Assembly: GCF_000013905.1 (NCBI RefSeq)
Contig: NC_007969.1
Coordinates: 1,980,001 to 2,012,000, forward strand
Source: Psychrobacter cryohalolentis K5
GTDB lineage: Bacteria; Pseudomonadota; Gammaproteobacteria; Pseudomonadales; Moraxellaceae
DNA length: 32,000 nucleotides
Direction of reading: 5' to 3'
Shown: in pieces, positions 3,073 through 28,132 of the stretch
Layout: the number at the start of each line of letters is the position of its first letter
How positions within the stretch are numbered: the first letter of the stretch is position 1
Position numbers and translations under genes: made by a program
The notes under the pieces: generated by a model
Told to the model about the DNA's origin: nothing
Database searches by the model: none
What the model saw: only the letters and a program-made list of their open reading frames with translations

Positions 3073-3684
3073 TTATGCTTCACAGTGATAAATATTAAAT
3101 GCTCGATAGTATTTGTCATCATGCAGTCTGCCAAATAAATCAAGCGATGCGCCAGACTCTAAAGAATGAGTGTAGGCTCCTGGAAAAAAGATAACGGTTG
3201 GTTTTTCTTTGGCTGTACTTTGTAAGTTATTCAAAACGTTATGCGAACGTATATACGGGAAAACCTCACCAACACCTGATAGAAAAAGAACATCGTATTC
3301 TGTACTACTTAGCTTGCTGGCAATCGCTGGTGCCAAATGAGACTCAGGATCTAAGACTCCTTGAAGCAACTCTTTCAGCTGTTCTTTGTCAATCTGCTGT
3401 TCCACTTCTAGTATCTGATCAAAAATCTCGCGCTCTTTAAGTAGCTCTATAGACAGATCATACAAATTTATAGCCAAGATATTGATACCATTTTTCTGTA
3501 ACTGCTTAGTTAATTGGTCTTCAAGACGTAGCATCTCGTTTGATTCTTCAGGCCTAAAAGGACAAATGAAAAATGGAACCTCATTCCCTAGACCTTGCAT
3601 CTTAAGGAAATGCTCACTTGAAATGACAGAAAAAAGATGGTCATAACTTTTTTTATCACATGCTTGTACGTTGCTCATAGTCAT
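3073..3684 (-). CDS. brxB: BREX protein BrxB (DUF1788-like)
   Basis: 203-aa ORF. Its size, its position between brxA and brxC, and sequence stretches (FFICPFRPEE, VLFLSGVGEVFPYIRSH, IFFPGAY) fit my memory of the DUF1788/BrxB family. Confidence 0.82.
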   Translation of the reverse strand: MTMSNVQACDKKSYDHLFSVISSEHFLKMQGLGNEVPFFICPFRPEESNEMLRLEDQLTKQLQKNGINILAINLYDLSIELLKEREIFDQILEVEQQIDKEQLKELLQGVLDPESHLAPAIASKLSSTEYDVLFLSGVGEVFPYIRSHNVLNNLQSTAKEKPTVIFFPGAYTHSLESGASLDLFGRLHDDKYYRAFNIYHCEA

Positions 3685-3696
3685 GACAGCACTCCC

Positions 3697-4296
3697 TTAT
3701 ATTGCATTTTCAGAAATCGTGAAGTATTTGATATCTCTACTACCATTACGCTTTATCGTTTCTATTAGCCTTGAGCTCAACATAGTGGCTTGAATATTAT
3801 TTTTTCTGTCTAAGAAATTGGCATCTCGAAGCATTTTAAATAACACCTGTCTAAGCTTTTTTCTCGTACTTATACTTAAACTATCAAGCTCACTATGCCA
3901 GTCACACTTTCTATTCAGAAACGTATCAAAATCTGAGTGTTGAAGATCTGGTTTGAAAGTGATAAAACGCTCTCGTAGCACTTCAGTAGCAAAATCAGCA
4001 ATGAAGTGATAATAACGACAAATTGCAATCCACAGTATATAGGCTTGTTCTTGGCGCTCAGACTCTATAAGTAACGTAAGCTCATCAATATTAAGTGTTC
4101 TCAAGCGAGCTATAATTTCATGGCTCAGCCTTTTAAGTGTACTTAATGCTCTAGATTGAAGTAAATTCTCAGCAATCACTTTATCTTTCACTAAATCCCA
4201 GTCGCCTAATTCAAGATATAACTTGGCTATCGTTACTGACTCTGGCTGTAGCAGCGCACCAGCTGTAAATGACATATTGTATTTTTGGCTATTCAT
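3697..4296 (-). CDS. brxA: BREX protein BrxA (DUF1819-like)
   Basis: 199-aa ORF, first gene of the brxA-brxB-brxC series, with a 12-nt gap to brxB. Size and helical character are typical of BrxA. Confidence 0.8.
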   Translation of the reverse strand: MNSQKYNMSFTAGALLQPESVTIAKLYLELGDWDLVKDKVIAENLLQSRALSTLKRLSHEIIARLRTLNIDELTLLIESERQEQAYILWIAICRYYHFIADFATEVLRERFITFKPDLQHSDFDTFLNRKCDWHSELDSLSISTRKKLRQVLFKMLRDANFLDRKNNIQATMLSSRLIETIKRNGSRDIKYFTISENAI

Positions 4297-4353: not shown

Positions 4354-4505
4354 GATAATGCTTATTGTTTATTGCTATAAAGTAACGCAGGCCAGTATTG
4401 TACATGGTTCTGTATATTGCTTAAACATTATGTATATAATTGAGGTATGCTGAAGAAACTGTAGAGCTAAACTTAGTAAACTAAGAACTCGACAAAGAGT
4501 TTACC

Positions 4506-4700
4506 ATCACAAAGAAAATTAGAACTTATAGTACAGAATTTAAAGCAGAAGCCGTTAAGAAGATAGTGGACAATAACGGTAATATTTCAGCGACTTCAGA
4601 ACAGCTAAGCACAGCCATGTAAACGTTATCCAACTGGCATAACCAAGCCAATCAAGACAAGCTTGTCGGTACGGAACAATATGATCCGCTTATGGCGGCT
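4506..4700 (+). pseudogene. Remnant of an IS3-family transposase orfA (HTH part only)
   Basis: The frame reads I-TKKIRTYSTEFKAEAVKKIVDNNGNISATSEQLSTAM*TLSNWHNQANQDKLVGTEQYDPLMAAL. It has ATC where the ATG is expected (4506-4508) and an in-frame TAA at 4620-4622. No orfB and no terminal inverted repeats are visible. Confidence 0.7.
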
Positions 4701-4714: not shown

Positions 4715-5413
4715 TTAATAAGCGTACTGATCACAGCTAGGTTGATCGCCATTATCACAAGCTTTACTATACCAATCTCTTGACTGCTTTTTATCTTGAA
4801 GAACACCTCTGCCCTCAAAGTACATTAAACCAAGACTATTTTGAGCTAAGGCATATCCTTGATTGGCCGCCTTCAAATACCATTTGGCTGCTTTTACGTT
4901 ATCCTTACTAACGCCAGCACCTTTTTCGTACATATCACCGATATTATTTTGAGCCCCAGCATCTCCTTGATAGGCAGCTTTTAAATACCAATCCATTGCC
5001 TGATCATAATCCTTTTTAATGCCTCTACCGTTATGATACATCCATCCAAGATTGTACTGCGCATCACCATACCCTTGATCAGCAGCTTTCCTGTACCATT
5101 CAACTGCTTTAACAGAGTCTTGACTAACGCCGTCAGCGTGCTCGTACATCCACCCAATATTAAATTGAGCCGATGCATTGCCTTGTTCTGCTGCCTTCTG
5201 ATACCACTCAAATGCTTTAGCAGTGTCTTGAGCAATACCACTACCTTCGTCGTACATCACACCAAGGTTGAATTGAGCTGATGCCCTCCCTTGATTAGCT
5301 TGTACACTCGTCGTAGTAAAGTCTGCTGCAACAACAGGTACTTCAAGCCCTACTAACAAGCCTAAAACTATTAACCTGTAAAGAAACATCTGCCTTAGCG
5401 TTTGTAGATTCAT
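4715..5413 (-). CDS. Secreted Sel1-like repeat (SLR/TPR-family) protein
   Basis: N-terminal signal peptide (LIVLGLLVGLEVPVVAA/DF) followed by five tandem ~36-aa repeats of the form AxAQxNLGxMYxxGxGVxxDxxKAxxWYxKAAxQG. Confidence 0.88.
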   Translation of the reverse strand: MNLQTLRQMFLYRLIVLGLLVGLEVPVVAADFTTTSVQANQGRASAQFNLGVMYDEGSGIAQDTAKAFEWYQKAAEQGNASAQFNIGWMYEHADGVSQDSVKAVEWYRKAADQGYGDAQYNLGWMYHNGRGIKKDYDQAMDWYLKAAYQGDAGAQNNIGDMYEKGAGVSKDNVKAAKWYLKAANQGYALAQNSLGLMYFEGRGVLQDKKQSRDWYSKACDNGDQPSCDQYAY

Positions 5414-5425
5414 ATTTATTCCTTT

Positions 5426-6505
5426 TCAACTATCCAATATCTGGTCTGCTAAATAATCTGGCACACCTAAGAAGTATCCCTTCATCGTCATCCGATCAAA
5501 GCTATAAATATGAGCGTGAGGCGCTTCTTTACAGCGCCCTACCAACGGCGGCATTTGATCTGGCTTACCGTTAGCAAGCTCTATCAATCCTGAGCAAATT
5601 GGACAAGTTGCAGTAAACTCTGTGACTCTCGCTACATTCAGCCTATCTTTATCCCAATACATCTCAATATCCGCATTAACGACATTAATATTTGCAAAGA
5701 ACATAGGCGCTTTAATAACACGGTAATAAGGCAGTCTATATAACGGCACAAAGAAATATCGCCAATTAAGGTAAGCCAAAGGAATGAATGCCACAAAAAT
5801 TATGGCTTGCCAAAGCTTAAAATTTGGCAAATCGCTTAGTAATAAGATAACGAGTAACGAAAATATAGCAATAAGGATATCTACTAAAAAACTCAGCATC
5901 AGCAGAATCATTAGCAAAACGCCTCGAAAGCTTAAGATCTTTAGCTCACCCTTTTTGAAGAAAAGACGAGTGAATAAAGATGGCTTAATCTCAGAAGTCG
6001 CTTTGCGCTCATAAGTAATACTACTTAAATCCTCATCATCCTCATCATCCTTATCAGACTCAAAGACAGCAGATCCAGCTATCTGCTCTTCATCTACTTC
6101 CTCATTTTCAATAGCTTTAATGCTCATCCATACTAGGGTTCTGTTCTTAGCACCACCCTCTGACACAGATGAGATCACTTCTGGCAAATAACCTATATCA
6201 TTAAACGCCTGTTCACAGTCTGGTTGTGACTCAATAAACCTTATTAACTCTACATTTAATCTATCCGTTTTTATTTTGTTTTTAGCAATTTCACTGCTCA
6301 CAGTATTTTCATTTACGCCTCTAGCTTTGGCGTAAATAACTTGCCTCGATAACTTCTCAGGCTCAAAATCTTCGTCCGAATATTTCAGTTTGTTGAGCTG
6401 TGCGTCAACTATTATTCTTAGACAATGATCATAAAAAGTATTTCTTGGGAAATTAAGTAATTGTTTCTTGAGCTCTTCAAAGACATCTAAGTGTATGTTT
6501 TTCAT
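5426..6505 (-). CDS. Hypothetical membrane protein: soluble N-domain, acidic linker, 2 TM helices, C-terminal zinc-ribbon-like domain
   Basis: 359-aa ORF with a 12-nt gap to the Sel1 gene downstream. It has a DE-rich stretch DKDDEDDEDL and hydrophobic helices VLLMILLMLSFLVDILIAIFSLLVILLL and AIIFVAFIPLAYLNW. The C-terminal motif is CPIC-x20-C-x4-H-x-H. I recognise no family. Confidence 0.75.
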   Translation of the reverse strand: MKNIHLDVFEELKKQLLNFPRNTFYDHCLRIIVDAQLNKLKYSDEDFEPEKLSRQVIYAKARGVNENTVSSEIAKNKIKTDRLNVELIRFIESQPDCEQAFNDIGYLPEVISSVSEGGAKNRTLVWMSIKAIENEEVDEEQIAGSAVFESDKDDEDDEDLSSITYERKATSEIKPSLFTRLFFKKGELKILSFRGVLLMILLMLSFLVDILIAIFSLLVILLLSDLPNFKLWQAIIFVAFIPLAYLNWRYFFVPLYRLPYYRVIKAPMFFANINVVNADIEMYWDKDRLNVARVTEFTATCPICSGLIELANGKPDQMPPLVGRCKEAPHAHIYSFDRMTMKGYFLGVPDYLADQILDS

Positions 6506-6607
6506 AGGTAAGTACCGATTAAGACCCTATTATACCCCCAATAGCAGTCTGTTTTAGAGGCAGAATTCTTCTCATAATTACCTCACTCTTAACCAACTAA
6601 CAAGAGG

Positions 6608-7513
6608 ATGGTAACTATGTCAATGTCAATCGCTGTTAATGAGCAAAAGCAAATCGTCAATGTTAAGCAAGTCGAGCGAGGGCTGGCTTGTATGTGTTTT
6701 TGCTTTGAATGTGGTGAGCCTGTAGTGGCTCGTAAGGGTGACAAGAATGAGCATCATTTTGCGCATCTTAACAATAAAGAAAGCTGCACTATTCACCCTG
6801 AAAGCATCCTACACAAGTTTGCTAAGCAAGTCATTATGCAAGAGAGGTATTTAACGCTACCATCCCTACCTGATGATGAAAATAGCGAGGATAAAACTTG
6901 GGAGTTTGACCACCTAATCGAAGAGCAAGCTGTTAGCTGTATTCGACCGGATATAGTCGCAACGGTAGACGGGGAAATGATGTTTATTGAAGTTGCTGTG
7001 ACTTCTTTCATCGATACTGATAAATCAGATTTTATTAAGCAATTGGGTATCAAGACCGTTGAAATCGATTTGAGGGAAATCATCGCACAAGGTATTGAGT
7101 TGCCGAGTGAGGAAGCAAAGGTTCATATTTTAGACTGTGCCAGTAATAAACGGTGGATATTCCCAGCACCGAAATCTTTAACAATACCAGTAGCCCCTAC
7201 ACCATTACCTGAGCCTCTCTATAATTGCCAGAGCAGCACTGATGAGAATAGCAATGGAAGCTTTGACAAAGGCTATACGATCTATCGCTTTACCATCAAT
7301 CATGCTTGGGTCGACGTCAGAGTCTTTAATTCAGGCATGGTATCTATTAAGTGTGTGACCTACAACCATGATGTTATTGAAATACTAAAGCAATGGCGTA
7401 ACGAAGGCGGTGGTCAGTACAATCAAAAATATAAGTCATGGAATTACTTCAAACCATTTTCAGACACCGTCTTTCAGCGACTGCAAGAAATGGACATGAC
7501 CCCTACTGCTTAA
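6608..7513 (+). CDS. CoiA-like protein (N-terminal zinc finger + PD-(D/E)xK-type nuclease core)
   Basis: CFCFECGEPVVARKGDKNEHHFAH...C and ESILHKFAKQVI followed by IRPDIVATVDGEMMFIEVAVTS resemble the competence-protein CoiA family layout. The true start may be the ATG at 6617, 8 nt after AGAGGA. Confidence 0.65.
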   Translation: MVTMSMSIAVNEQKQIVNVKQVERGLACMCFCFECGEPVVARKGDKNEHHFAHLNNKESCTIHPESILHKFAKQVIMQERYLTLPSLPDDENSEDKTWEFDHLIEEQAVSCIRPDIVATVDGEMMFIEVAVTSFIDTDKSDFIKQLGIKTVEIDLREIIAQGIELPSEEAKVHILDCASNKRWIFPAPKSLTIPVAPTPLPEPLYNCQSSTDENSNGSFDKGYTIYRFTINHAWVDVRVFNSGMVSIKCVTYNHDVIEILKQWRNEGGGQYNQKYKSWNYFKPFSDTVFQRLQEMDMTPTA

Positions 7514-7548: not shown

Positions 7549-8085
7549 ATGACACTCACTACTATGCTACTAATTACAATACTGCTGATATTAGCCATGC
7601 TTGTATGGGCTATACAACGGATACAATTACAAAATAAGGCTTTGCTACAAAGTGAACGAGATGTTGCGCAAATTAGGAACGATATGCTCGAAAGAGAAGC
7701 AGGCTTTCAACAGCAATTAGCAAAAGACATTAAAGAGGCTCAAAAGCGTTCCAACAATATGCAGCGCAATGTGCTAAAAGGTCAAATTGGCGAACAGTTC
7801 ACGCCCTTTATTACTGACTTTCCTTACAACCCTTCAGACTGCCGATTCATGGGTGAACCGATTGACTACGTCATCTTCCAAAACTTGCATGAATGCGCCG
7901 ATGGCAACGTGCCTATCGAGGACGTGCATCTCATTATTGCAGAAGTTAAAACAGGGAATGCTAGGCTAAACCAACGGCAGAAGATTATTAAACAAGTAAT
8001 CGAAAATGGGCAGGTTAGCTTTAAAGAGCTTAGGATAAAACACTGTGAAGATACGGAAGATATGCGTGTGAATGTTAGTGCCTAG
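7549..8085 (+). CDS. Membrane-anchored endonuclease related to archaeal Holliday-junction resolvase (COG4741 / Endonuc_Holl-like)
   Basis: I chose the ATG at 7549, preceded by ACGGAGA, instead of the track start at 7438, which overlaps the upstream gene. The protein has an N-terminal TM (MTLTTMLLITILLILAMLVWAI) and a coiled-coil segment. It continues GEQFTPFITDFPYNPSDCRFMGEPIDYVIF...IIAEVKTGNARLNQRQK, which matches that family as I remember it. Confidence 0.75.
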   Translation: MTLTTMLLITILLILAMLVWAIQRIQLQNKALLQSERDVAQIRNDMLEREAGFQQQLAKDIKEAQKRSNNMQRNVLKGQIGEQFTPFITDFPYNPSDCRFMGEPIDYVIFQNLHECADGNVPIEDVHLIIAEVKTGNARLNQRQKIIKQVIENGQVSFKELRIKHCEDTEDMRVNVSA

Positions 8086-8823: not shown

Positions 8824-10026
8824 ATGATTACTTATATTCGCTTTAATAATTTTTACTCTTACTCAGAGTCTACTGAGGTGTCATTCTCTTTGGGTAAGCA
8901 ACCTACTAAGACTGACTATGATTTTTATGTTGATACCACGCAAGACCAGTATCGACTAAATAAAGTCACAGCTGTTCTTGGCGCGAATGGCTCCGGTAAA
9001 ACGCAGCTATTAAAAGCCATTGCTTTTCTTCGTTGGTTTATGTGTGAATCTACTAGCAGCCTTGACTCAGAGCAACCTATTTCTTTTAGCCAATTTGCGC
9101 TAAGTAATGATGAATTTTCTGAATTTGAATTTGGTTTTTTACTTAAAAATGCTGATGGCATTTATGATGAGTATCGCTATGAGCTAACGTTGACACAGCA
9201 TAGCGTGGTTAAAGAGGCATTATACAAAAAGACCAGTAGCCAATTTAGCTATGTATTTATACGTCATCATGACGGTGACAAGCTTAGCTATAAGCATCGT
9301 AACTTTGTCATTCCCTCTTTAGCTGATGATGTGAAAAAAAACGCCTCACTTATCAGCTATGCCAATTTGCTCGATGAGCCATTGGCAGAAGCCATTTTTG
9401 ATATGTTCAATCACTATAAAACTAATGTAGTCTCAATGGGTAGGCTTGGTAGCCTTAGCCAATCTATACCTGAAATGACAGAATTATTTGCTAGAGATGA
9501 TGGTTTAAAACAAACCGCTGAAAAGCTACTTTGTCAGTTCGATACGGGCATCGATGAGATTAATATAAAAAGCGTGATGATGGTAAACGAGGGTAAACAG
9601 CAAGAAGTACTGCTACCTTTTGGTGTTCATAAAGTGGGTGATGAATCATTTGAGCTTATGATTTATGAAGAGTCTAATGGTACACAATCAGCCTATAGCT
9701 TGCTTGGGCTCATATTGCCAGTGCTTAAGAATGGTGGTGTGGCCATTATTGATGAGCTTGATAATGACTTACACCCCCTACTGTTACCTGCCATTTTTGA
9801 TTTGTTTCGCTCATCGCATCATAATCCTCATAATGCTCAGCTTATTTTTAGTTGCCATACCCCTGAGGTGTTCAACTTATTAAACAAGCATCAAATTTAT
9901 TTGGTCGAAAAATACGAGCAAGCTTCAGAATCTTGGCGGCTTGATGAGATGGAAGGGATTCGTAATGATGATAACCTTTATGCAAAATATATGGCTGGCG
10001 CATTTGACGCGATACCAAATCTATAA
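8824..10026 (+). CDS. AAA_21/ABC-type ATPase (AbiLi/RloA-like)
   Basis: Walker A GANGSGKTQLLKAI, Walker B/D-loop VAIIDELDNDLHPLL, and a late FSCHTPE (H-loop-like). The 400-aa size is typical. Confidence 0.85.
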   Translation: MITYIRFNNFYSYSESTEVSFSLGKQPTKTDYDFYVDTTQDQYRLNKVTAVLGANGSGKTQLLKAIAFLRWFMCESTSSLDSEQPISFSQFALSNDEFSEFEFGFLLKNADGIYDEYRYELTLTQHSVVKEALYKKTSSQFSYVFIRHHDGDKLSYKHRNFVIPSLADDVKKNASLISYANLLDEPLAEAIFDMFNHYKTNVVSMGRLGSLSQSIPEMTELFARDDGLKQTAEKLLCQFDTGIDEINIKSVMMVNEGKQQEVLLPFGVHKVGDESFELMIYEESNGTQSAYSLLGLILPVLKNGGVAIIDELDNDLHPLLLPAIFDLFRSSHHNPHNAQLIFSCHTPEVFNLLNKHQIYLVEKYEQASESWRLDEMEGIRNDDNLYAKYMAGAFDAIPNL

Positions 10027-10037
10027 GGGGTTAGATT

Positions 10038-10559
10038 ATGGCAAAGCGCAAACCTACTAGATCCGTCAACAAAACCACCCTACTCGTGATGGGTGAAGGT
10101 GAGCATGACAAGGCATTTTTAAGTCACATGAAAGGTATCTATCATGAAAGGCGCTCTGGCAGTAAAATTACGCTTGATTTTTCGAGTGGTGGCTCTCCAC
10201 ACGATATCATCAAGGACACAGTTAAAAAGAGTCGTCACGTTGATTATGACCAGAAGTTTATTCTGATGGATAGTGATGTTCCTGTTGAGCAACAAGATAT
10301 TAAAGTAGCTAAAGATTCAGGTATCACCATGTTATACTCAACACCACTATGCCTAGAAGGCATGTTGCTTAGCATACTGAAACAGAATATTCCTCATACC
10401 GCGCAAAAGTGTAAGAGTCTGTTGCATCCACAATTATCCGATAATCCAGCGTTACCGAAAAGCTATGATCCCTTATTCGCTAAGCCAGTGCTTGATGGGA
10501 CCAATCATGCCACAGTCGTAACGTTACGCTCATTATTAGGCATTAAACAAAAAAAATAA
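10038..10559 (+). CDS. Small Toprim-like protein (RloB/DUF4276-like partner of the ATPase)
   Basis: Lies 11 nt after the ATPase stop. The N-terminal LLVMGEGEHDKAFLSHM (EGE acidic motif) and the later FILMDSDV (DxD) fit a Toprim fold as in RloB/AbiLii-type partners. Confidence 0.6.
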   Translation: MAKRKPTRSVNKTTLLVMGEGEHDKAFLSHMKGIYHERRSGSKITLDFSSGGSPHDIIKDTVKKSRHVDYDQKFILMDSDVPVEQQDIKVAKDSGITMLYSTPLCLEGMLLSILKQNIPHTAQKCKSLLHPQLSDNPALPKSYDPLFAKPVLDGTNHATVVTLRSLLGIKQKK

Positions 10560-10595: not shown

Positions 10596-10847
10596 CTAAG
10601 CTGATCTTGCTTCAATTTTTTCATTAATCCACTCTGCAATCTCACTTGCTACCCAAGCTACCCTCACTTGTGTCAGTTGCACCTTTTTAGGGAACGTTGG
10701 ATCATATTGAGCAGAATTTACATCGGCCATTGCATAGATAGTCGAGCGGCTGATACCTGTATATTCTTTAACGGCTTTGAGGCTAAGTAGCTGAGGAATA
10801 TGGTTGCATTGCTCAATAAATGGTTGTGCTATATTTAAGTTTTCCAT
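10596..10847 (-). CDS. alpA: AlpA-family HTH regulator/excisionase
   Basis: 83 aa. LSLKAVKEYTGISRSTIYAMAD...FPKKVQLTQVRVAWVASEIAEWI has the typical Phage_AlpA pattern. Confidence 0.85.
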   Translation of the reverse strand: MENLNIAQPFIEQCNHIPQLLSLKAVKEYTGISRSTIYAMADVNSAQYDPTFPKKVQLTQVRVAWVASEIAEWINEKIEARSA

Positions 10848-11015: not shown

Positions 11016-11927
11016 TCAGCTCACAACAGTCACGCTCTGCCGTAGACCTTGTTCAATGCTATTCACGTTATGAGTTACTAACCCATTCTGATAGCTACCC
11101 TGCTGATTGCTACTGACGTCATCTGTCTCAACTGGATAAAACTCTTCAGCGACTTCTGCTAGATCATCAGCATCAATCTCAAAGCATGAATTCACATAGC
11201 CTTGTCTTGCAGCCTGCTCTAATGCAGCCTGATCAAAGCCGTGTTCACTAAGCTCTGCATCTATCGCTTGCGCATCCTGCACCGCTTGCTTAAGTGTCAC
11301 ACCATCACGCAAGGTTAAATCCACAAAGTAAATTGGGGTGCGATAGCTTTGTGTCGTGCTTTTGCCTCTCAAGGTTAATTGCAGTGGCAAGCATGAAAGC
11401 TTATTACCGGATACTGCTGCAAAGTAGCTGAGCCTTGCTGCTAGTGTGCGAATACTATTAAAGCCAGTTGTCCGAAAGATGAATGTGCCCAGCTCATCGT
11501 CCTCAGAGAGATTGGCGTACAGTCTGCCATACGGCTTACAAGCACCGCCTTGCGCCAGTGGACAGCGATCAGGCGATGGGCAGGGATGGCTTTCAACGCC
11601 TTTACTGGTGCGCCGCTGACACTGCTCACCGTCACCGACGCATAGTGGGCGTCCGGTCTGTCTATCAAATAGCGTGTACTCAGCTCGTAGATTAAGCTCA
11701 GGATCGTTAAACAGCATGCGAACTGGTATTTGCCGCAGCTTGCCTTCATTATTTGCGCGTAGCTTTTCATCGAGTGGATGATTGATCCAGCCATCCTTGT
11801 TTTGAACTTGGCTGGTAATCGTAAATTGATCGTCTTTAGCAGGTAAGCGTTTGCCATCTTTTACAATGACACGCCCAATGCTGATACGACCTAAAACTGG
11901 CGGGGTAATAGTGAGACCTTTAATCAT
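11016..11927 (-). CDS. Conserved island protein with a Cys-rich putative metal-binding centre (often annotated 'hydrolase or metal-binding protein')
   Basis: I chose the start at the ATG at 11927 (MIKGLTITPPVLGRISIGR), 7 nt after AAGGAA. The longer track ORF would overlap the terminator of the upstream gene. The Cys cluster reads CVGDGEQCQRR...HPCPSPDRCPLAQGGACKPYGRL. Confidence 0.65.
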   Translation of the reverse strand: MIKGLTITPPVLGRISIGRVIVKDGKRLPAKDDQFTITSQVQNKDGWINHPLDEKLRANNEGKLRQIPVRMLFNDPELNLRAEYTLFDRQTGRPLCVGDGEQCQRRTSKGVESHPCPSPDRCPLAQGGACKPYGRLYANLSEDDELGTFIFRTTGFNSIRTLAARLSYFAAVSGNKLSCLPLQLTLRGKSTTQSYRTPIYFVDLTLRDGVTLKQAVQDAQAIDAELSEHGFDQAALEQAARQGYVNSCFEIDADDLAEVAEEFYPVETDDVSSNQQGSYQNGLVTHNVNSIEQGLRQSVTVVS

Positions 11928-12051: not shown

Positions 12052-13176
12052 TCAGTTATCGTTAAGGATGACAAAGCGACGACTGCCTTGACGGGTTTTA
12101 CTAAACTGCTCGAGCAACTCAGGATGCGCTTTGGTTAGTGCTTTACTATCAAGACTGACACTGTCTTTAGAGCGCTTCCAAGAGATAGCGCCTTTCTTAA
12201 ATACCGCAATCTCATTGTCTTGAATTAAGCTTTGCAGTTGATGCTTCACTTGGTCATGACGCTGCTCTAACTCTTGCATATAGTCACGGTAGCTAAGCAA
12301 TTGCTCAAACAGTTTATTAGCACCGTCATCATCCGTTAGATCAACTTTGCTTGAGGGCTCAGGGGTTGGATAAAGCTGTTTTAATGCTCTTGCTGCGGAT
12401 TCCGAATGATCAGGAGTTGGAGGCGTGTCCGTTGCTACGTATTGCCAGAACAGATGCTCATGCTCCATGATGGATGCAATCAAGTATTCATCACGCTCAA
12501 CTTTATAAATCTTCGCTTCGTGTCCACAAAGCAGAACGCAAATATGCGCCGCAGCTTTACCCGTGACCGCCAGTTGATGTTGTACTTGGCAAGTGACATA
12601 GAGCGGTACGCCATGCTTCCATAGCTTGGCACCATGTTCACCAGCAGTTTTACATTCCAGTATCTGTACCTCGTCATTACCAGTGATTGCATAGTCTAAG
12701 TTCGCCAGCATAAATGGCTGCTCAGGATGCTGCAAGATGGCATTGACGCGGCGCACCTTATTGCCGGTATGCTCTTGATAGTATTTAGCGACCATCGGCT
12801 CTAAGGTATTGCCCCAATACAATGGCGAGTACCCTTCGATGCTCTCATCGATATCAGAGTCGATACGACCGGTCTTAATCATCCATAGCTCCAGCATAGA
12901 CAAATAAGGATGGATACCACAAGCGGCAGCAGCATCAGAGCTGCCAATACCTTGTCTGCGTACTTGTAGCCAGTCCTCATGGCTCAAAGATTTGGTATTG
13001 ACCAAACGTTTAGCAGTGGTTGATTGATGAGCAGACGGCTTAACGGGTTTGCTCTCTAGCTTGGACTTCGGCATATCTTCGATACCATGCTTAGTCTTTA
13101 TTGGCGTCTTAATCTTAACAGTAGTGCGCTTGGTGTGTCTTGGCTGAGTCGTCGTGTTTAATGCGATCATGTTCAT
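12052..13176 (-). CDS. YqaJ-like viral recombinase/exonuclease domain protein with a basic N-terminal extension
   Basis: RRQGIGSSDAAAACGIHPYLSMLELWMIKTG is the hallmark YqaJ N-motif. Later acidic/Lys motifs (ILECKTAG) fit a PD-(D/E)xK exonuclease. Confidence 0.85.
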   Translation of the reverse strand: MNMIALNTTTQPRHTKRTTVKIKTPIKTKHGIEDMPKSKLESKPVKPSAHQSTTAKRLVNTKSLSHEDWLQVRRQGIGSSDAAAACGIHPYLSMLELWMIKTGRIDSDIDESIEGYSPLYWGNTLEPMVAKYYQEHTGNKVRRVNAILQHPEQPFMLANLDYAITGNDEVQILECKTAGEHGAKLWKHGVPLYVTCQVQHQLAVTGKAAAHICVLLCGHEAKIYKVERDEYLIASIMEHEHLFWQYVATDTPPTPDHSESAARALKQLYPTPEPSSKVDLTDDDGANKLFEQLLSYRDYMQELEQRHDQVKHQLQSLIQDNEIAVFKKGAISWKRSKDSVSLDSKALTKAHPELLEQFSKTRQGSRRFVILNDN

Positions 13177-13292: not shown

Positions 13293-14285
13293 TTAGGCCA
13301 GCATCAGTAGCGATTCCTCTAAGCCCTTTTGCTTAAGCTTAGCGCCAGAGCCAAACCAAGCGCCATCTAATCGATGGTCTCTAGACATCGCCCTACGTTC
13401 ATGATCAACGTACTCCGTAATGCTGCACAGCAAACCGTAAGCCGTATCACGAGCGGCGTCGAGTGTGGCACCGCGTCCTTGACCGTTAAACATCTGCATC
13501 ACTTGATTCATCGCTTTAGCATTAGGCACAGCGTCTTTCTCTTTCTTAGCACGGTTAAATAAAATGATGTCATTGTCCTGATCATTGAATACACGGCTAA
13601 GATAATTGGCTGCTTCTGCTTGGGTGACACGGCGCTCTGATAGCTGCTTCATCTCATAAGCGTGCTCATCCCATTGTTTGACGGATACACCTAATTGCTG
13701 CTTAACCTTATCGGCATCAAAGGAGGTGGAATGCGGTACTTTCACCATGCCGCCATTGCCGTTGGCAAGGCTGATCGCTAGAGTGTTATTACAGACCACA
13801 CGAATAGAGGTGAACTGAGCAGTAGTCGCTAACGTCCCATCACAAGCCGTTGCCAGCAAGAGATAGCCATTACTGACATCTTTACCTTTAAGCGTTGCTG
13901 ACTGGCCTGTACGTGCTAATGCCCATAGCTTACGCCCGCCCTTTAGAACACCTGCGGTCTCAAGCTCAAAGTCCGATTGCTCGGTAAGATCACGATAGAA
14001 TTCTAAAATCTCACGCGGCTGTACTTCCTGATAGCGCTGGCTAACAACAGATAACGGCTCAAAGTTATCGCTACGGTACAACACCTTTTGCTCAGCAAAG
14101 GGCAGAATCAGATTGTGCCCTTTATCATTACTAGCCATGTAGCTGACGTCCGATGATTCAATACGCCAGTCCATACCTGCTTGCTTTGCCCAGATCTCGA
14201 TAGGCTGCTTGGGAGCCAGCTCGTTTCCAAGACCGTGCCAGGGCGTGTCACCGACGTAGGCAATTGATTCTAATAAATGTGCCAT
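13293..14285 (-). CDS. DUF932 (phage/plasmid-like protein, TIGR03299-type)
   Basis: 330 aa. The N-terminus MAHLLESIAYVGDTPWHGLGNEL and overall length are typical of DUF932 proteins of integrative elements. Confidence 0.8.
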   Translation of the reverse strand: MAHLLESIAYVGDTPWHGLGNELAPKQPIEIWAKQAGMDWRIESSDVSYMASNDKGHNLILPFAEQKVLYRSDNFEPLSVVSQRYQEVQPREILEFYRDLTEQSDFELETAGVLKGGRKLWALARTGQSATLKGKDVSNGYLLLATACDGTLATTAQFTSIRVVCNNTLAISLANGNGGMVKVPHSTSFDADKVKQQLGVSVKQWDEHAYEMKQLSERRVTQAEAANYLSRVFNDQDNDIILFNRAKKEKDAVPNAKAMNQVMQMFNGQGRGATLDAARDTAYGLLCSITEYVDHERRAMSRDHRLDGAWFGSGAKLKQKGLEESLLMLA

Positions 14286-14760: not shown

Positions 14761-15675
14761 TTATTTTACTATGGGCGGTAGTCCGCGACGTTTAGAGGTT
14801 CTATAAATACCATGACCAAAGGTGCGCATGTTTGGTAGCCACAGTTTAAGTTGCTGCTCATCTTTACTTGGCTTAGTTAAATATAAAGCTGAAGCTATAG
14901 CGTTTTCGACTTCCTGAGGGTTATCACGATGAATCATGCCGATACCTAATTTGCCGTATTGTTGGTACTTCTGCTTACGCTCTGGATCGTGGTAGTTATA
15001 GTACTCACCTAAACCCGCTGTAATCATTTTCCATTTTTCACCAATCTCTTTAGCTAGATACCAGTCATTGTCCCTTTTCGAGCCATCGAACATCAACAGT
15101 AAATGACAGTGTAATCCACCGTTCACTCCTCCTTGCTCAACTGCCCAAGCATTGCCATGCAAATGCTCAAAGCAAGTTTTCTTATTACCGATAAGCTCCC
15201 GTAGCTTATTCATGTGATCATCAAAGTTCTCGATAGATACATGGTGGCTCGTCTGCTGTGCGTATTTTAAATCGATACGCACAAATAGTAGTCTTGAGTA
15301 GTGAGTAGTGAGATTACCTACGTAATTCGCTAAATTATTTCTATTTTGCGACTCCTGATAGCTAAACGTAATGCGTTCACGCTCAATATCATTTCTATAG
15401 CAGGATAACGTAGCGATAAACCGCTGGGTTTTATCATGATCCCAGACGACGTCAATTGGATATGATTCACCAACTATAGCGTTGGTGCTATATACAAATG
15501 CGACAACCGGCTGTGAATAAAATAGCTCAGTATTGAAGTGTGTCATGAACGGATAATACAATCCGTTCAGTTGAGTTTTGACATCATCAAAGCTTATGGT
15601 ATTTGCCAATATGGCTGTGACCAGATTATGGACATTAGCAACAACTTGAGGTTGGTTGAAGTTTGAATACGGCAT
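14761..15675 (-). CDS. Inovirus Gp2-type / YagK-YfjJ family protein
   Basis: 304 aa. LLFVRIDLKY, GGLHCHLLLMFDG and the C-terminal LYLTKPSK region match the YfjJ/YagK family seen in CP4-like islands. Confidence 0.78.
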   Translation of the reverse strand: MPYSNFNQPQVVANVHNLVTAILANTISFDDVKTQLNGLYYPFMTHFNTELFYSQPVVAFVYSTNAIVGESYPIDVVWDHDKTQRFIATLSCYRNDIERERITFSYQESQNRNNLANYVGNLTTHYSRLLFVRIDLKYAQQTSHHVSIENFDDHMNKLRELIGNKKTCFEHLHGNAWAVEQGGVNGGLHCHLLLMFDGSKRDNDWYLAKEIGEKWKMITAGLGEYYNYHDPERKQKYQQYGKLGIGMIHRDNPQEVENAIASALYLTKPSKDEQQLKLWLPNMRTFGHGIYRTSKRRGLPPIVK

Positions 15676-16082: not shown

Positions 16083-17681
16083 ATGAGTGAAGCTGAGGCT
16101 CGAACTGAAGTTAAGCGGTTAAATCGGACTCAAAAAAATGCAGAATATATCGAAAAGAAGATCAATAGTCTTAGTTTTTATAGCGCCTATTGGTGTTTAT
16201 TTGAATTGCGATCTTTATATGCACTCTCTGAAAAACAGATTTTAAGAGACGACACTCGCGTTAAATCAAAGTTAATTCATATCTTAAAAAAGGCAAACTG
16301 TAACCCTAAAAAATTGGATGAAATCTTACAGACGAGCGCTGACGAAAGCATACCTCTATCCTACGTCAGATGGTTTTATGAAGACGACAGAGCGGCTTTA
16401 TGGATAAATATGGTTTTGAAAAAATATAATGCAGCGAGCGATTATATACAAACAAAATCAGACATTGCGATTTTTGCCCATAACCTTATTTTCAATTCAA
16501 ATATTCGTATTTCAGGAAGAGAAATTCATATAGGGTCTGATTCTTACAACGACGCTTTAGTACTGAATAAAAAACAAGTTTTAGGTTTTTTAGAACAAGC
16601 TTACGTTCGTAGTAAAGTTGGCTTAGGGAAAACAAAATGGATGGATAGTCGCAATGATATTCAGGTTAATCATTTATACCAGTATATGCAAAAACCCTGC
16701 GAACTTATTAAGCTAAACGTTGTTACGTTCAGTCCTAGCCAAGCTTTGATTTGTGCTGATACTATTGCTATAAAAGAATCAGATAGGGTTAGTAGGCTTA
16801 ACCATATGCTGGCTTCACTAGATTATTGGATGTTTGATACTTATTGGTTTAATGAAGATGGTGTCGTGCTAGGCAAGGACAATAACAGAAGTAAGTTTCT
16901 AGAGATGATGAAGAATGTCTCCAATTCAAAAGCTAACCGTATTAACGATAAAAATATAAAGAAAAAAGGCTTAGTACTTACCAGTGCAAACAAGAAAACC
17001 CTCAGTCTGATTGCTAAAAGACAAGGTAAAACTCGAGCGCAAATGCTTAACGATATCGTTGCCAGCTACAACCAAACTTTTTTCTCCGAAGTACCTAAAA
17101 CCACTAGAGCTACTGGTGCTTATATAACGGGCGACTATGGAAAACCATATACAGACACATTTGAAACGCAGCAAAGCCTAAAAGCTAAACAGGCTAGCTC
17201 TGAGACTATGTTAGTAGATAGTGATAGCGAGGAGAATACAGAAGATGTTCCTGGCACTGATATATTAGAACCAGCAACAGGCATTGAACGTAAAAACCGC
17301 AAGTGTGTTGAATATGCTGAGATTGATGAATGCGTTAAGAACGATGAGCAAATCGAGAATGACAAGCAAGTCAAAAATGCTAAACCAAAGGATTTCGATA
17401 ATCGATGTAAAAACTTAGAAGACGCTGATAATAGTGCTACTGGCAAATTAACAGATGAACTCATTCTTGCTATCACTCCAAGCAAAAACATTGATACACC
17501 TGTAGACATCTCTACAATTGAAACTGTACAGCCTGTGACTAGCTCACATGATACTGAACATATTTCAGCTTCAGATGAGAATCTTCACAACATTGATGAT
17601 AAAATATATGATGACGATCCTTTTTTGATAAACGCCAGGCTTATAAGCAAAAGGCTGGAAGAACATAAGCAAACCAATTAG
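16083..17681 (+). CDS. Hypothetical 532-aa protein with an acidic, low-complexity C-terminal third
   Basis: Long ORF preceded by GGAGATAGAAAG. The internal segment KKTLSLIAKRQGKTRAQMLNDIVASY looks ribbon-helix-helix-like. I recognise no family. Confidence 0.7.
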   Translation: MSEAEARTEVKRLNRTQKNAEYIEKKINSLSFYSAYWCLFELRSLYALSEKQILRDDTRVKSKLIHILKKANCNPKKLDEILQTSADESIPLSYVRWFYEDDRAALWINMVLKKYNAASDYIQTKSDIAIFAHNLIFNSNIRISGREIHIGSDSYNDALVLNKKQVLGFLEQAYVRSKVGLGKTKWMDSRNDIQVNHLYQYMQKPCELIKLNVVTFSPSQALICADTIAIKESDRVSRLNHMLASLDYWMFDTYWFNEDGVVLGKDNNRSKFLEMMKNVSNSKANRINDKNIKKKGLVLTSANKKTLSLIAKRQGKTRAQMLNDIVASYNQTFFSEVPKTTRATGAYITGDYGKPYTDTFETQQSLKAKQASSETMLVDSDSEENTEDVPGTDILEPATGIERKNRKCVEYAEIDECVKNDEQIENDKQVKNAKPKDFDNRCKNLEDADNSATGKLTDELILAITPSKNIDTPVDISTIETVQPVTSSHDTEHISASDENLHNIDDKIYDDDPFLINARLISKRLEEHKQTN

Positions 17682-17880: not shown

Positions 17881-18239
17881 TATTGTATATCATTAACTTT
17901 CTGTAGCTACCTCTTACCTCTACTATCAGCAGATTATGCTGTAATTCTAATGAGAAATTCAGGCATAAAAGTCAACAAGCGCTTTAATACTATCTTATTC
18001 TCTATCGTTACGTGTTCTATGAATAGACATAGATTATATCCTCTAAATTATTAATCGATTGAAATAGCATCACTTTATTTATTTAGAAAGTACTAGCTAA
18101 TGATAGCCGTTAGATAACACAAAGCCTTATTCAACCTGCTTGTTTCATACAAGTTTTTTAGCTACAGTTAAAATTCCTATATTAAATAATGACGATGAAC
18201 CGTCAAATAAAAACAATCTTTCATAAGCTGGAGTACATT

Positions 18240-18749
18240 ATGGAGCTAAAGCTGAATGAGCTCTCCGATAAAAACAATTTAAATAGTCATCATGGCGAGC
18301 ATATTATCCTGCGTCTAACTTATGTTAGCCGCTATAACACCGAAAATTCAAATATCGAAGTAGCACGTATTCTTGAGCAGGCGCAGCGTAATAATGAGCG
18401 CAATGGTATTACTGGTGCATTAGTAATTAATGAAAACTATTTTCTCCAAGTTATTGAGGGCGCAAGACCAGTTATTAACAATCTGTTAAAAAAATTGATT
18501 GAGGATAAGCGACATTTTTCTTTGCAAATTATTGAGTGCCGTGAAATTGAGGAACGGTATTGGAATAAATGGTCAATGAAATATTTAACGGCTAATGATC
18601 AGAATAAAGAATATGTTATGAAATATTCAGCCAGCAATGAATTCAACCCTTACCTAATGAGTACTTCTCAAATTACAATGTTTATAGACAAGTTATCAAA
18701 ACTTCAAGAACGACAAGAAAAACGCGAGTCTAAGATGAAAAAATCTTAG
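18240..18749 (+). CDS. BLUF-domain blue-light photoreceptor (short, BlsA-like architecture)
   Basis: LRLTYVSRY...NNERNGITGALVINENYFLQVIEGARPVINNLLKKLIEDKRH...WNKWSM carries the conserved Y, Q and W/M positions of BLUF. I chose the start at ATG 18240, 7 nt after GGAG; the track start is 18189. Confidence 0.85.
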   Translation: MELKLNELSDKNNLNSHHGEHIILRLTYVSRYNTENSNIEVARILEQAQRNNERNGITGALVINENYFLQVIEGARPVINNLLKKLIEDKRHFSLQIIECREIEERYWNKWSMKYLTANDQNKEYVMKYSASNEFNPYLMSTSQITMFIDKLSKLQERQEKRESKMKKS

Positions 18750-25529: not shown

Positions 25530-26768
25530 TTATTTCTTTTTTGCATCACTCAAAATAGAATTAGCATCACTAAAGCGAGTTTCTAAAGTGCTTTTACCTT
25601 GTCCGTATATTCCTTTATCTGTAATTTCACTAATAATGACTGCTTGGCTTGAAAATGGTTGTTTATGGTCAATTCCTTTAGGCGTGACCATCAATTCTAA
25701 TAATAAGCCTATGGTAGTCTGATAGCTTTTTTCGGTACGTTCACTCAATTGTTGATAGTCATCAGCTGGCTTGTCTGCCAGTGCTGCATTAGCTTGTGCT
25801 AATTGGTTCTCAAGGTCTGATATTTTGGCGTTTGCTGCTGTTAATCTTTTAATAATTTGCTCATTATTCGGGGGTTCAGTTTGCGTTACTGTGGGCGCTG
25901 GTATCTTGTCGGTATCGTTTGGCAGATTGTCATTAAAACCCCTAATAATGAAGTTGTAACGAGCAAGCCATAATTTTACTTGTTCAGCTGGTATCTGTTC
26001 TTTATCGTTAATAGGATTTAATGCTTTTGCCTCTATTGCGTTGCTTACCATATCTTTGTAAGCGTTATATTTATCATCATTATGGCTATATGCTGGGTTA
26101 TCGTTAGATAATAAGCAAGTGACTTGGTGGGGAGTGAATAGAACATAACTAATAAGCAGTCTTTGGCTGCCAGTCGGCTCTATTAGGTCATTTCTTGCAT
26201 TCATGTCCGCTGTAACACTATCTCTTATTGTTTTAGCAGCATTCATATAAAATTCAAACTCATTTTGTGCGTTATCGTATGATTTTTTGACGTTAAATAA
26301 ATTGATTAACTCATTTCTTGAAAAACGCACCTCATCAAAATCAATATTTGAATATTTAAGGTCATCGAGCTTATCAACTTCTCCAATAGGGGGATTTTTA
26401 AACAAAAAAACTTCATCAAAAACACTATATGCCTTACTTTGCTGTTTAATAATTTTCTGAATAGTAAAAGGCGAATGTATTTCTATCCATTCGGGCACGT
26501 CAGCATCACCAAATGTTGAGTAACTCTCATAATTCCTAGTTTGGTGCATAAAAAAATCATCATGTGTGAAATAGGCTTTCATTTTGTCATAACGAATTGT
26601 TTTATAATTAATATCAGGATAGCTAACGTAACCACTGAACAAAAATACTGGGGTAAGCTTTTCAATATTGCTTAATTCCTCAAGGGTTGAACCATCTATT
26701 TTTTCGCCCGTTAATTCAAAAACAAAGTCAATGGCTTGCCGTATAGATAGATATTCTTGCACTAACAT
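25530..26768 (-). CDS. Hypothetical 412-aa protein, visibly more AT-rich than its neighbours (island cargo)
   Basis: Long ORF between int and alpA. It has a coiled-coil-like segment (IIKRLTAANAKISDLENQLAQANAALADK). I recognise no family. Confidence 0.75.
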   Translation of the reverse strand: MLVQEYLSIRQAIDFVFELTGEKIDGSTLEELSNIEKLTPVFLFSGYVSYPDINYKTIRYDKMKAYFTHDDFFMHQTRNYESYSTFGDADVPEWIEIHSPFTIQKIIKQQSKAYSVFDEVFLFKNPPIGEVDKLDDLKYSNIDFDEVRFSRNELINLFNVKKSYDNAQNEFEFYMNAAKTIRDSVTADMNARNDLIEPTGSQRLLISYVLFTPHQVTCLLSNDNPAYSHNDDKYNAYKDMVSNAIEAKALNPINDKEQIPAEQVKLWLARYNFIIRGFNDNLPNDTDKIPAPTVTQTEPPNNEQIIKRLTAANAKISDLENQLAQANAALADKPADDYQQLSERTEKSYQTTIGLLLELMVTPKGIDHKQPFSSQAVIISEITDKGIYGQGKSTLETRFSDANSILSDAKKK

Positions 26769-26890: not shown

Positions 26891-28132
26891 TTAGCCATGC
26901 TTTTGTTTTTGTTGTCTAAAGTTGGTATGTATGACGTTATCCAATTTGCCAGCATAAGCATCATCAATAAAGTTTGCCCATTGGTGCATCATGTCTATTC
27001 TATATGGCAAGTGCTGCGCCCCGTTGTAGGCTGCGCTGATCTTGTTTTCTCTATCATGTGCCAGCTGTAGCTCTATGGCTTCGTGCATAAACTCTTTTTC
27101 ATGTAGTGTGGTACTGGCAAGCCCTCTAAACCCGTGCCCCGTCATCTTGCCTTTATAACCCATATTCCATAGGGCATTAATAAACGCGCTTTGACTGTAT
27201 GGCTTACGAGTTGAGGTATTAAAGAAAACGTACTGATCGGAAAAACCTAGCTCTTTGATCTGTTCCAGTATCGCCATTGCTTGCGGTGCTAATGGCACAA
27301 TATGCAAACGCTTGGCTTTCATCTTATCGGCTGGTATGCGCCATAAGCCATGTTTGTAGTCAATCTCCGACCACTCCATGAAGCGGATCTCATTAGTACG
27401 CACAAACGTATAGCATAAAAACCATAAGCCTAGTTTCACCAGTACATCACCTTGATAAGCATTGATGTCTGTTAGTAGCTTTGGCAGTTGCTGGCTAGTA
27501 ATACGGTGGTGGTTGGTCGTTTTGTGTGGTTTGATTGCTTCGGCTAGGTCGGTGGCTGGGTTATGTGTGGCTAGTCCATTGCGGATAGCGTGCTTAAATA
27601 TCTGTCCTACTTCTCTAATGGTACGCCTTGCCATTTCATTAGCACCACGGCTTTCTACTGCTTTGCCAATAGCTAATATATCAGGCGCGGTTATGTCGTT
27701 GATGTTCTTTTGACCAATAGAGGGCTTAACATCGCGCATATAGGCGGAATAGTTACGAGTAAAGGTGCTTTCTGCTAGGTAGGTTTTGCGTTCTGCATAC
27801 CATGACTGGGCTATGTTATCGAAAATATTTAAACCGTCTTGGCTGGCTTGCTGCTCTTTTTTATGATCTTTGGGGTTCACACCATCAGCTATTAAGCGTT
27901 TGATCTCAATATTGCGCTGCCTTGCGTTCTGCAAGCTCATAACTGGATAAGTGCCAATAGTGAGGGTTTGCTGCTTACCTTGCCAGCGGTAGGCGCTGAT
28001 CCATGACTTAACGCCCGTGTAACGAACCCATAATTGCAGCCCGTTACCATCACTATGTTTATCAGGTCGCTTTGTATCAATCGAGGTGCTACTGGGCTGT
28101 AGCTTATTGATAACGGTATGAGTTAAGGGCAT
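26891..28132 (-). CDS. int: Tyrosine recombinase, P4-type integrase (DUF4102 arm-binding N-domain + catalytic domain)
   Basis: GLQLWVRYTGVKSWISAYRWQGKQQTLTIGTYPVMSLQNAR is DUF4102-like. The C-terminal HGFRGLASTTLHE...LAHD...AYN region carries the R..H.xR..Y catalytic pattern. The gene lies adjacent to the tmRNA. Confidence 0.93.
   Translation of the reverse strand: MPLTHTVINKLQPSSTSIDTKRPDKHSDGNGLQLWVRYTGVKSWISAYRWQGKQQTLTIGTYPVMSLQNARQRNIEIKRLIADGVNPKDHKKEQQASQDGLNIFDNIAQSWYAERKTYLAESTFTRNYSAYMRDVKPSIGQKNINDITAPDILAIGKAVESRGANEMARRTIREVGQIFKHAIRNGLATHNPATDLAEAIKPHKTTNHHRITSQQLPKLLTDINAYQGDVLVKLGLWFLCYTFVRTNEIRFMEWSEIDYKHGLWRIPADKMKAKRLHIVPLAPQAMAILEQIKELGFSDQYVFFNTSTRKPYSQSAFINALWNMGYKGKMTGHGFRGLASTTLHEKEFMHEAIELQLAHDRENKISAAYNGAQHLPYRIDMMHQWANFIDDAYAGKLDNVIHTNFRQQKQKHG

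Follow-up and report, generated by a model that had tools for sequence, protein, structure and literature searches.

The window analyzed here is a 32,000-nucleotide stretch of Psychrobacter cryohalolentis K5 DNA (contig NC_007969.1, positions 1,980,001 to 2,012,000), and the gene at issue encodes a 359-amino-acid (aa) membrane zinc-ribbon protein that we call X359 (positions 5426 to 6505 of the window, minus strand; taken from the open reading frame [ORF] list). Downstream of X359 and on the same strand lies a gene for a secreted-type protein of 232 aa with Sel1 repeats (4715 to 5413; Pfam Sel1). On the upstream side, head to head with X359 across an intergenic region of 102 bp (6506 to 6607), is a 301-aa ORF on the plus strand (6608 to 7513) that is matched by the Pfam model CoiA_N and is referred to below as the CoiA-like nuclease candidate. 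A preliminary description of this DNA had joined X359 to the Sel1 gene and considered the two as a membrane-acting defense or exclusion unit, as an accessory of the adjacent bacteriophage exclusion (BREX) locus, or as unrelated envelope cargo. Comparison across loci shows that the conserved partner of X359 is the divergent CoiA-like gene and not the Sel1 gene.

The domain layout first read from the X359 sequence, namely a soluble N-domain, an acidic linker, a hydrophobic hairpin, and a C-domain with a cysteine/histidine motif, is borne out by hydropathy, an AlphaFold2 (AF2) model, and the sequence itself. The N-domain (aa 1 to 133; nucleotides 6107 to 6505, minus strand) is followed by an acidic linker that is disordered in the AF2 model (aa 134 to 160): residues 130 to 162 contain 15 D/E residues versus 2 K/R residues, and the predicted local distance difference test score (pLDDT) falls below 50 at residues 134 to 157, compared to a mean of 77.7 for the whole model. 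The hairpin of two transmembrane (TM) helices occupies aa 195 to 254 (nucleotides 5744 to 5923, minus strand). Hydropathy places its helices at residues 195 to 223 and 232 to 254 with an 8-residue loop between them, and the AF2 model sets their limits at 193 to 221 and 231 to 261. The stretches ahead of TM1 and behind TM2 are enriched in K/R, and from this charge bias the positive-inside rule predicts that both soluble domains are cytoplasmic, with only the 8-residue loop exposed to the periplasm. The layout is not that of ToxR/CadC-type proteins, as there are two TM helices, a loop of 8 residues, and no periplasmic sensor domain.

The C-terminal domain (aa 263 to 350; nucleotides 5456 to 5719, minus strand) is all beta in the AF2 model and carries a C3H site with the motif C301-P-I-C304-x20-C325-x4-H330-x-H332. 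To define the conserved positions, we used a set of 30 divergent relatives with a mean identity of 22%. C301, C304, C325, and H332 are invariant in this set, along with G313, G323, F336, D337, and G343, while H330 varies. The motif noted earlier (CPIC-x20-C-x4-H-x-H) is therefore present in this protein, but its first histidine is not conserved, and the zinc site is best read as C-x2-C...C-x6-H. With four conserved Cys/His ligands on a beta-rich scaffold, the domain has the features of a zinc ribbon or treble clef, and metal binding is predicted. None of the Pfam zinc-ribbon models was significant against the 30 family members. CoiA_N matched 1 of the 30 at an E value of 0.0068, and we do not claim kinship between the zinc domains of X359 and the CoiA-like protein.

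X359 had been described as belonging to no recognized family, and our searches agree: Pfam, NCBIfam, PHROGs, and PADLOC returned zero family matches, and profile searches of all PDB sequences found no match for either X359 or the CoiA-like nuclease candidate. When the 30 divergent members were searched against Pfam at a permissive threshold (E ≤ 1), nothing consistent emerged and no helix-turn-helix (HTH) family was matched. A Foldseek search with the AF2 model of X359 against the PDB and predicted viral structures yielded no match at E ≤ 0.001. For the N-domain (~108 residues), weak and nonsignificant matches to the winged helix of RepE54 (probability of 0.2) and to the N-terminal part of lambda GpO recurred, so that a winged-helix-like fold is possible and is treated here as a lead only. 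In contrast to these empty family searches, homologs are plentiful. There are 133 close homologs, almost all from Psychrobacter, and an exhaustive profile search recovered 535 clusters at 50% identity, of which 291 have an E value of ≤1e-10. Nearly all are 320 to 365 aa long and have the same architecture. X359 is thus a real conserved gene and, here, the founding member of an unannotated family. We also considered X359 as a phage gene and rejected this, since tblastn found no homolog in 50,697 phage genomes and IMG/VR contained a single distant match.

The likely true start of the CoiA-like gene is at 6617, which gives a protein of 298 aa. Its N-terminal Cys/His zinc finger (aa 25 to 62) is matched by CoiA_N (PF25164) at 30.1 bits versus a cutoff of 26.3 (residues 29 to 62), and precomputed annotation lists this match in nearly all homologs; DUF7830 and DUF7828 give weaker Pfam matches. 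The core of the protein resembles PD-(D/E)xK nucleases, with E65, D115 (in R-P-D), E128 (in I-E-V), and K139 invariant, and is followed by a variable linker (aa 190 to 219) and a small alpha/beta C-terminal domain (aa 222 to 298). The best Foldseek matches of the AF2 model (pLDDT of 78.3) are Bax1, SfsA, Hjc, RecU, HincII, and Can2, all of which have a restriction-endonuclease fold, at weak E values of ≥7e-3. Outside the zinc ribbon, neither the CoiA nuclease domain (PF06054) nor the CoiA C-terminal domain was matched in Pfam at E ≤ 0.01. The genes are named "competence protein CoiA family protein" by NCBI. Judged by its sequence, however, the partner is not filed here as a CoiA ortholog, because the CoiA nuclease domain is unmatched and the zinc ribbon alone is common to both.

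To assess the conservation of the gene pair, we compared 34 genome loci (tblastn and ORF maps), 80 metagenome loci, and ~20 more found by protein lookups and plasmid searches; loci were sampled by pattern-limited scans. A CoiA-like homolog is head to head with X359 in every genus sampled, and the pair was mapped in Psychrobacter, Moraxella, Acinetobacter, Pseudomonas, and Halopseudomonas among the 34 genome loci. We then took a census with hidden Markov models (HMMs) built on the nuclease part and on the C-terminal domain, covering 92 loci that have a full-length X359 homolog and at least 1.1 kb of upstream sequence. A CoiA-like partner was present on the opposite strand in 86 of the 92. The pairing was also found in metagenomes, and it is kept on plasmids, both a 15.6-kb Psychrobacter plasmid, where it is beside replication genes, and a 310-kb Acinetobacter plasmid. 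It is likewise kept with X359 homologs of only 19 to 22% identity (loci L042 and L134, the latter with a nuclease HMM match of 4.5e-56). These data indicate that X359 and the CoiA-like gene form a widely distributed, horizontally mobile two-gene module. The module is undescribed: the literature that we searched yielded no account of the pair and, apart from PD-lambda-4B, none of DUF7830/DUF7828 or CoiA-like defense proteins.

Three of the six exceptions in the census (L039 to L041), together with L047, proved to have a split partner. At these loci of distant lineages, a gene of 75 to 79 aa lies directly beside X359 and is followed by a DUF7830 zinc-finger gene, with the nuclease core present or absent. 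The small proteins are homologs of the nuclease C-terminal domain, with E values of 2.7e-9 for L047 and 4.8e-7 for L039 after one HMM iteration and before their own inclusion (search space of 5,045 ORFs). Single-sequence hhalign comparison of the small proteins to the nuclease alignment gave the right registers with weak statistics, and the iterated HMM was used instead. A protein-protein relationship between X359 and the small domain may be inferred mainly because the domain persists beside X359. In Pseudomonas oleovorans (L032 and L033), an apparent exchange of the partner for a NERD plus zinc-ribbon nuclease was rejected as an artifact: X359 is 5' truncated and frameshifted there, and the homology of the remnant to the intact locus of P. 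xionganensis begins within the gene. One genuine exception is L133, where the neighbors are a 203-aa protein with no known family and a NERD protein. Another is a remote clade (L052 and L136/L137) in which an X359-like gene shares a minimal integrative element with an integrase, a DUF1233 excisionase, a small ORF, and a Phage_GPA replication gene; a ParE/Phd toxin-antitoxin pair flanks this element in L136/L137.

The two parts of X359 evolve differently: the N-domain changes rapidly and is exchanged by recombination, whereas the C-domain is conserved, with a mean pairwise identity of 0.47 for the N-domain versus 0.73 for the C-domain. In the homolog P0034, the N-domain is 53% identical, while the TM region and C-domain are 93% and 87% identical. 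Comparison to the window revealed sharp breakpoints of recombination in three Psychrobacter loci (L009, L012, and L014): identity is 88 to 100% through the nuclease gene, the Endonuc_Holl gene that follows it (described below), and most of the intergenic region and falls to 57 to 68% exactly at the X359 start. In a fourth locus, L005, the breakpoint falls midway through X359. The X359 alleles form at least two deep classes, which are freely combined with nuclease alleles and downstream cargo, and near-identical nuclease alleles pair with X359 alleles that differ chiefly in the N-domain. This pattern fits a conserved interface on the C-domain and variable recognition by the N-domain; it could also come from recombination alone.

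The length of the intergenic region is ~102 nt throughout Psychrobacter and 52 to 130 nt in most other lineages. We compared intergenic sequences from 30 loci by inspection. A TATAAT sequence lies ~25 nt 5' of the X359 ATG, and CATAAT and AAGAGG lie toward the CoiA-like gene; these were read as promoter elements by inspection only, and a consensus scan flagged none. In Psychrobacter, an AAAACAG motif, often within CAGnCTG, is found ~45 to 50 nt 5' of the X359 start, and similar AAACAG elements occur in the intergenic regions of Moraxella, Wohlfahrtiimonas, and Pseudomonas (L017, L018, L030, and L038). The motif may serve as a -35 element or as an operator.

The module is set in mobile DNA. Most of the window is a genomic island integrated at the transfer-messenger RNA (tmRNA) gene (28296 to 28654, minus strand), and the opposite end of the island lies outside the window, past its left edge. 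Between 10596 and 28654, its genes include a P4-type integrase (26891 to 28132), a DUF927 primase-helicase (20332 to 23067), YagK/YfjJ_C (14761 to 15675), DUF932 (13293 to 14285), YqaJ (12052 to 13176), Gp3-like (11016 to 11927), and AlpA (10596 to 10847) genes. Two further island ORFs, 16083 to 17681 (plus strand, 532 aa) and 25530 to 26768 (minus strand, 412 aa), have no Pfam match. The island also contains a gene for a BLUF blue-light sensor domain protein (18189 to 18749, plus strand; Pfam, 2.9e-27), followed by a 128-aa ORF with no family match; a photoreceptor is unusual as mobile-element cargo. In Psychrobacter, the module is placed between two variable cargo slots of such tmRNA-integrated islands. 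The slot on the nuclease side is occupied in the window by an AbiL pair (8824 to 10559, plus strand), comprising AbiLi (PADLOC, 5.5e-74) and AbiLii (1.6e-18), which in related Psychrobacter islands is either kept or replaced by three genes (clusters c13, c24, and c25) with no Pfam match. The same arrangement as in the window is found in Psychrobacter assembly GCA_904845985.1 (L035), which has an identical locus.

Between the CoiA-like gene and AbiL is a gene for a 178-aa protein (7549 to 8085, plus strand) with an N-terminal TM helix and an Endonuc_Holl domain (PF10107, Hjc-like; Pfam, 2.8e-28). It has the same orientation as the CoiA-like gene, begins 35 nt 3' of it, was seen in 24 loci that are almost exclusively of the Psychrobacter type, and is called as 178 aa in L035 as well. 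Its product would be a second nuclease, membrane anchored, within one small locus.

Outside Psychrobacter, the neighbors change while the pair remains. The Acinetobacter module lies in an integrase-bearing element next to genes for an HNH protein and a DUF3427 helicase-PLD protein, and McrBC is near the pair on the 310-kb plasmid. Type III restriction-modification (RM) is near the module in L051, Wadjet JetABCD in Halopseudomonas, and ParB/RepB genes in Pseudomonas, and the neighbors in L134 are an integrase and Fic. When PADLOC was used to scan 91 ORFs that neighbor the module at 14 loci not belonging to the main Psychrobacter clade, strong matches to type I, IIG, III, and IV restriction, Wadjet, IetA, PbeA, and mad2 were obtained. 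By raw adjacency, defense genes adjoin the module in most sampled contexts. The preliminary suggestion of a defense-linked module stands insofar as the homologs are mainly in mobile elements or near defense genes, but the partner is the CoiA-like gene rather than the Sel1 gene. Housekeeping envelope loci are not the main setting of the X359 homologs.

We infer that the module is a system for defense against, or exclusion of, phage or other incoming DNA in which membrane-anchored X359 controls the nuclease, and we put the probability of this reading at about one-half. In this model, X359 would have its anchor in the inner membrane and its two soluble domains in the cytoplasm, and its invariant zinc domain would bind the small C-terminal domain of the nuclease, which would thereby be tethered or restrained. 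The variable N-domain would sense either a cue from the invader or DNA located at the membrane, and the nuclease, once triggered, would cut the incoming DNA or, as abortive infection, the DNA of the host. In Psychrobacter, the membrane-anchored Hjc-like nuclease encoded after the CoiA-like gene would be a third component, and the Sel1 gene and BREX would be separate cargo, present in this strain in the variable slot beside the module. A bolder version is rather doubtful: the module, with its hundreds of clusters at 50% identity, would be a widespread immune module at the site of DNA entry, in which the inner-membrane zinc-domain protein tethers a structure-specific nuclease by way of the detachable C-terminal domain of the latter, the hypervariable, recombining N-domain recognizes invaders, and phage, plasmid, or transforming DNA is destroyed during passage across the membrane.

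Several observations weigh against a defense or exclusion function. No family in PADLOC-DB v2.0 matches X359 or the CoiA-like protein at E ≤ 0.01. The nuclease fold is assigned from a best Foldseek E value of 7e-3 and an E...D...E...K pattern, with the CoiA nuclease domain unmatched. In Wohlfahrtiimonas (L038), only a 94-aa gene for the C-terminal domain is present (3.8e-4 in round 0 of the HMM search), and in the remote clade of L052 and L136/L137, the X359-like gene is divergent from the excisionase-integrase genes and has no nuclease partner. The pair also occurs as an islet among housekeeping genes, between smpB and infC in Moraxella and between ftsX and ispD in L039, and beside thyA in one Psychrobacter clade. 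Divergent gene order is unusual for defense systems and typical of a regulator and its target. Finally, association with defense islands also fits an addiction or island-maintenance function.

The chief rival explanation is that X359 is a membrane-tethered DNA-binding regulator of the divergent gene or genes, perhaps also of cargo such as BREX, with a winged-helix-like N-domain that would bind the intergenic region between the two genes, so that no gating of a nuclease is needed. We consider this unlikely. The head-to-head order with a short intergenic region is kept family-wide, even beside excisionase-integrase genes, as would be expected of a regulator, and the weak matches that recur for the N-domain are to RepE54 (probability of 0.2), the N-terminal part of lambda GpO, and HTH proteins. 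However, the N-domain fold matches are all nonsignificant, and an HTH family was found by Pfam in 0 of the 30 divergent members. In the half of the intergenic region nearest X359, the sequence varies with the X359 allele class, which counts in favor of a regulator but is equally explained by a recombination breakpoint at that position. The AAAACAG motif upstream of X359 in several genera also counts in favor of regulation. In contrast, a regulator would leave unexplained both the persistence of the nuclease C-terminal domain as a separate gene beside X359 and the need for two TM helices as an anchor and for a zinc domain with invariant residues.

A second alternative, to which we give a low probability, is an addiction or stability module in which the nuclease is a toxin and X359 its membrane neutralizer, or the reverse, and which stabilizes plasmids and islands with no primary antiphage role. 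The replicon contexts described above are consistent with this: the pair is beside replication genes on the 15.6-kb Psychrobacter plasmid, is carried on the 310-kb Acinetobacter plasmid, adjoins ParB/RepB genes in Pseudomonas, lies within integrase-bearing islands, and can persist as an isolated two-gene islet. However, the genes are large (359 and ~300 aa) and divergent, unlike a type II toxin-antitoxin operon of small proteins, and the fast-evolving, recombining N-domain suggests a changing external target. Decayed copies, with X359 truncated and frameshifted in L032/L033 and the nuclease missing in L038, occur with no obvious compensation. Many toxin-antitoxin systems also defend against phage, and for this reason the addiction model overlaps with the defense model.

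The preliminary pairing of X359 with the Sel1 gene envisaged a sensor in the cytoplasm, a hairpin in the membrane, and a Sel1 protein in the periplasm that together act on the envelope, possibly as a BREX accessory. The local features behind it are all present in the window. The two genes are on a common strand, and the junction from the X359 stop to the Sel1 start reads TGA-AAAGGAATAAAT-ATG, a gap of 12 nt with AGGA inside. Pfam finds five Sel1 repeats in the Sel1 protein (PF08238; 3.3e-61, 202 bits versus a cutoff of 30.7), which also has a hydrophobic N-terminal stretch that ends in VVAAD, as judged by hydropathy; most bacterial Sel1-like repeat proteins are exported. The Sel1 protein of the window also matches the phage family phrog_8741 (2.2e-76). 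A type 1 BREX locus on the same strand begins with brxA (3697 to 4296, minus strand; Pfam BrxA, 1.5e-51; PADLOC, 1.5e-89) and brxB (3073 to 3684, minus strand; Pfam BrxB, 1.7e-41; PADLOC, 5.9e-70), spans 3073 to 4296 in this part, and extends past the left end of the window; in the identical locus L035, it goes on with BrxC, PglX, and PglZ. Between brxA and the Sel1 gene are, as reported, a remnant of an IS3-family orfA (~4488 to 4690, plus strand; HTH_Tnp_1, Pfam, 6.8e-8) whose translation has an in-frame stop and a short GC hairpin (4686 to 4698).

The preliminary description itself had named a lack of co-conservation of the two genes as refuting, and conservation across loci indeed makes this unit very improbable. 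We surveyed 84 loci with a full-length X359 homolog and at least 1 kb of downstream sequence, and the Sel1 gene was directly downstream of X359 in 7, all within the main Psychrobacter clade. Sel1 genes do follow X359 in three Psychrobacter sublineages (L001/L035 to L037, L003, L005, and L065), but the copies in two of the three lineages are only 46 to 59% identical, and L002 and L004, whose X359 is 90 to 91% identical, have no Sel1 gene. In L007 (3824 to 4987) and L010 (3703 to 4860), Sel1 genes of 385 to 387 aa occupy a separate slot, between AlpA and AbiL, in islands of the same type. Sel1 proteins are therefore seen as recurrent cargo at differing slots of related Psychrobacter islands. In addition, a periplasmic Sel1 partner would have almost no surface to contact, because the periplasmic part of X359 is predicted to be 8 residues.

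BREX fared little better as a partner. It is downstream of X359 and on the same strand in 9 of the 84 loci, representing ~4 independent contexts. These include L007, in which brxA directly follows X359 and the Sel1 gene is absent from that position, and the metagenomic L042, whose X359 homolog is 22% identical. However, in other Psychrobacter loci, the same slot is filled by type I RM (L003, L004, L005, and L014), by type III RM (L002, L009, and L013), or by a DUF7380-DUF4209 gene and a McrC-like DUF2357/PDDEXK_7 gene (L006 and L010 to L012), and PADLOC BREX protein models assign neither X359 nor the Sel1 protein to a BREX-related family. As the slot holds such varied systems, Sel1 and BREX are interchangeable cargo. 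We read the Sel1 gene as cargo specific to its lineage that lies at the margin of a variable slot, outside the conserved module, and the counts reject X359 as a BREX-specific accessory.

A role of the CoiA-family gene and its membrane partner in processing DNA from natural transformation is hardly tenable: the NCBI name and the Pfam CoiA_N match favor it, and Acinetobacter, Psychrobacter, Moraxella, and some Pseudomonas include naturally transformable species, but only the N-terminal zinc ribbon matches CoiA, and the distribution is sporadic and borne by mobile elements, with plasmid copies and pseudogenes and no core competence locus. We rejected a competence function on this distribution and on the literature, in which true CoiA is reported to be a D-loop resolvase that is restricted to Bacillota and acts with RadA, while Proteobacteria, including Acinetobacter baylyi, use YraN/ComM (bioRxiv 10.1101/2024.02.06.579203). 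The CoiA-like protein resembles CoiA of Bacillota in having an N-terminal zinc ribbon followed by a PD-(D/E)xK-like domain. It differs in its C-terminal domain, which can be a separate gene, and in its occurrence in Gammaproteobacteria, on islands and plasmids and always adjoining the membrane zinc-ribbon protein.

Comparison to known systems gives partial likenesses. PD-lambda-4 is a validated two-gene defense system of Escherichia coli, and its PD-lambda-4B protein has a CoiA-type N-terminal zinc ribbon (HHpred, 93.6% to residues 1 to 63 of PF06054) (Vassallo et al. 2022, PMC9519451). The module shares with it two genes, a defense-island setting, and a zinc ribbon like the CoiA N terminus, and PD-lambda-4B is the closest validated defense protein. 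In contrast, the partner in PD-lambda-4 is an AAA/helicase-like ATPase and that in the module is a membrane protein. Neither module protein was matched by PADLOC at E ≤ 0.01; several further PD-series (PDC) candidate models appear in its match lists, although models of PD-lambda-4 may be absent from the release used. Kiwa (KwaA/KwaB) is a two-gene system of defense islands that combines an inner-membrane protein with a cytoplasmic DNA-acting protein. The module may share its general logic, by analogy, in that a membrane protein is encoded beside a putative DNA-acting protein. However, its genes are divergent, X359 has two predicted cytoplasmic domains and an invariant C3H site, and there is no homology. 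Superinfection exclusion (Sie) proteins of prophages are encoded beside integrase and repressor genes; like them, X359 is a small membrane protein on mobile elements, and the X359-like gene of the remote clade lies in an integrase-excisionase module. Unlike them, X359 shows no homology to any Sie protein and has homologs in 0 of the 50,697 phage genomes, and Sie proteins are not known to have a nuclease partner or a zinc ribbon.

If the module is a defense system, it would add a new family, with an unusual architecture of divergent genes, a membrane protein whose domains are both predicted to be cytoplasmic, and a partner domain that is either fused or free. Apart from the zinc ribbon of the nuclease in Pfam, neither protein is represented in Pfam, NCBIfam, PHROGs, PADLOC, or the PDB. 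If this reading is true, it would also correct the misleading label "Competence protein CoiA family," under which the Gammaproteobacterial genes are named on the zinc ribbon alone. For annotation, the functional unit would be X359 with the upstream nuclease gene and not X359 with Sel1 or BREX. The pair is also useful as a landmark in Psychrobacter, where it marks the boundary of the two variable cargo slots in tmRNA-integrated islands.

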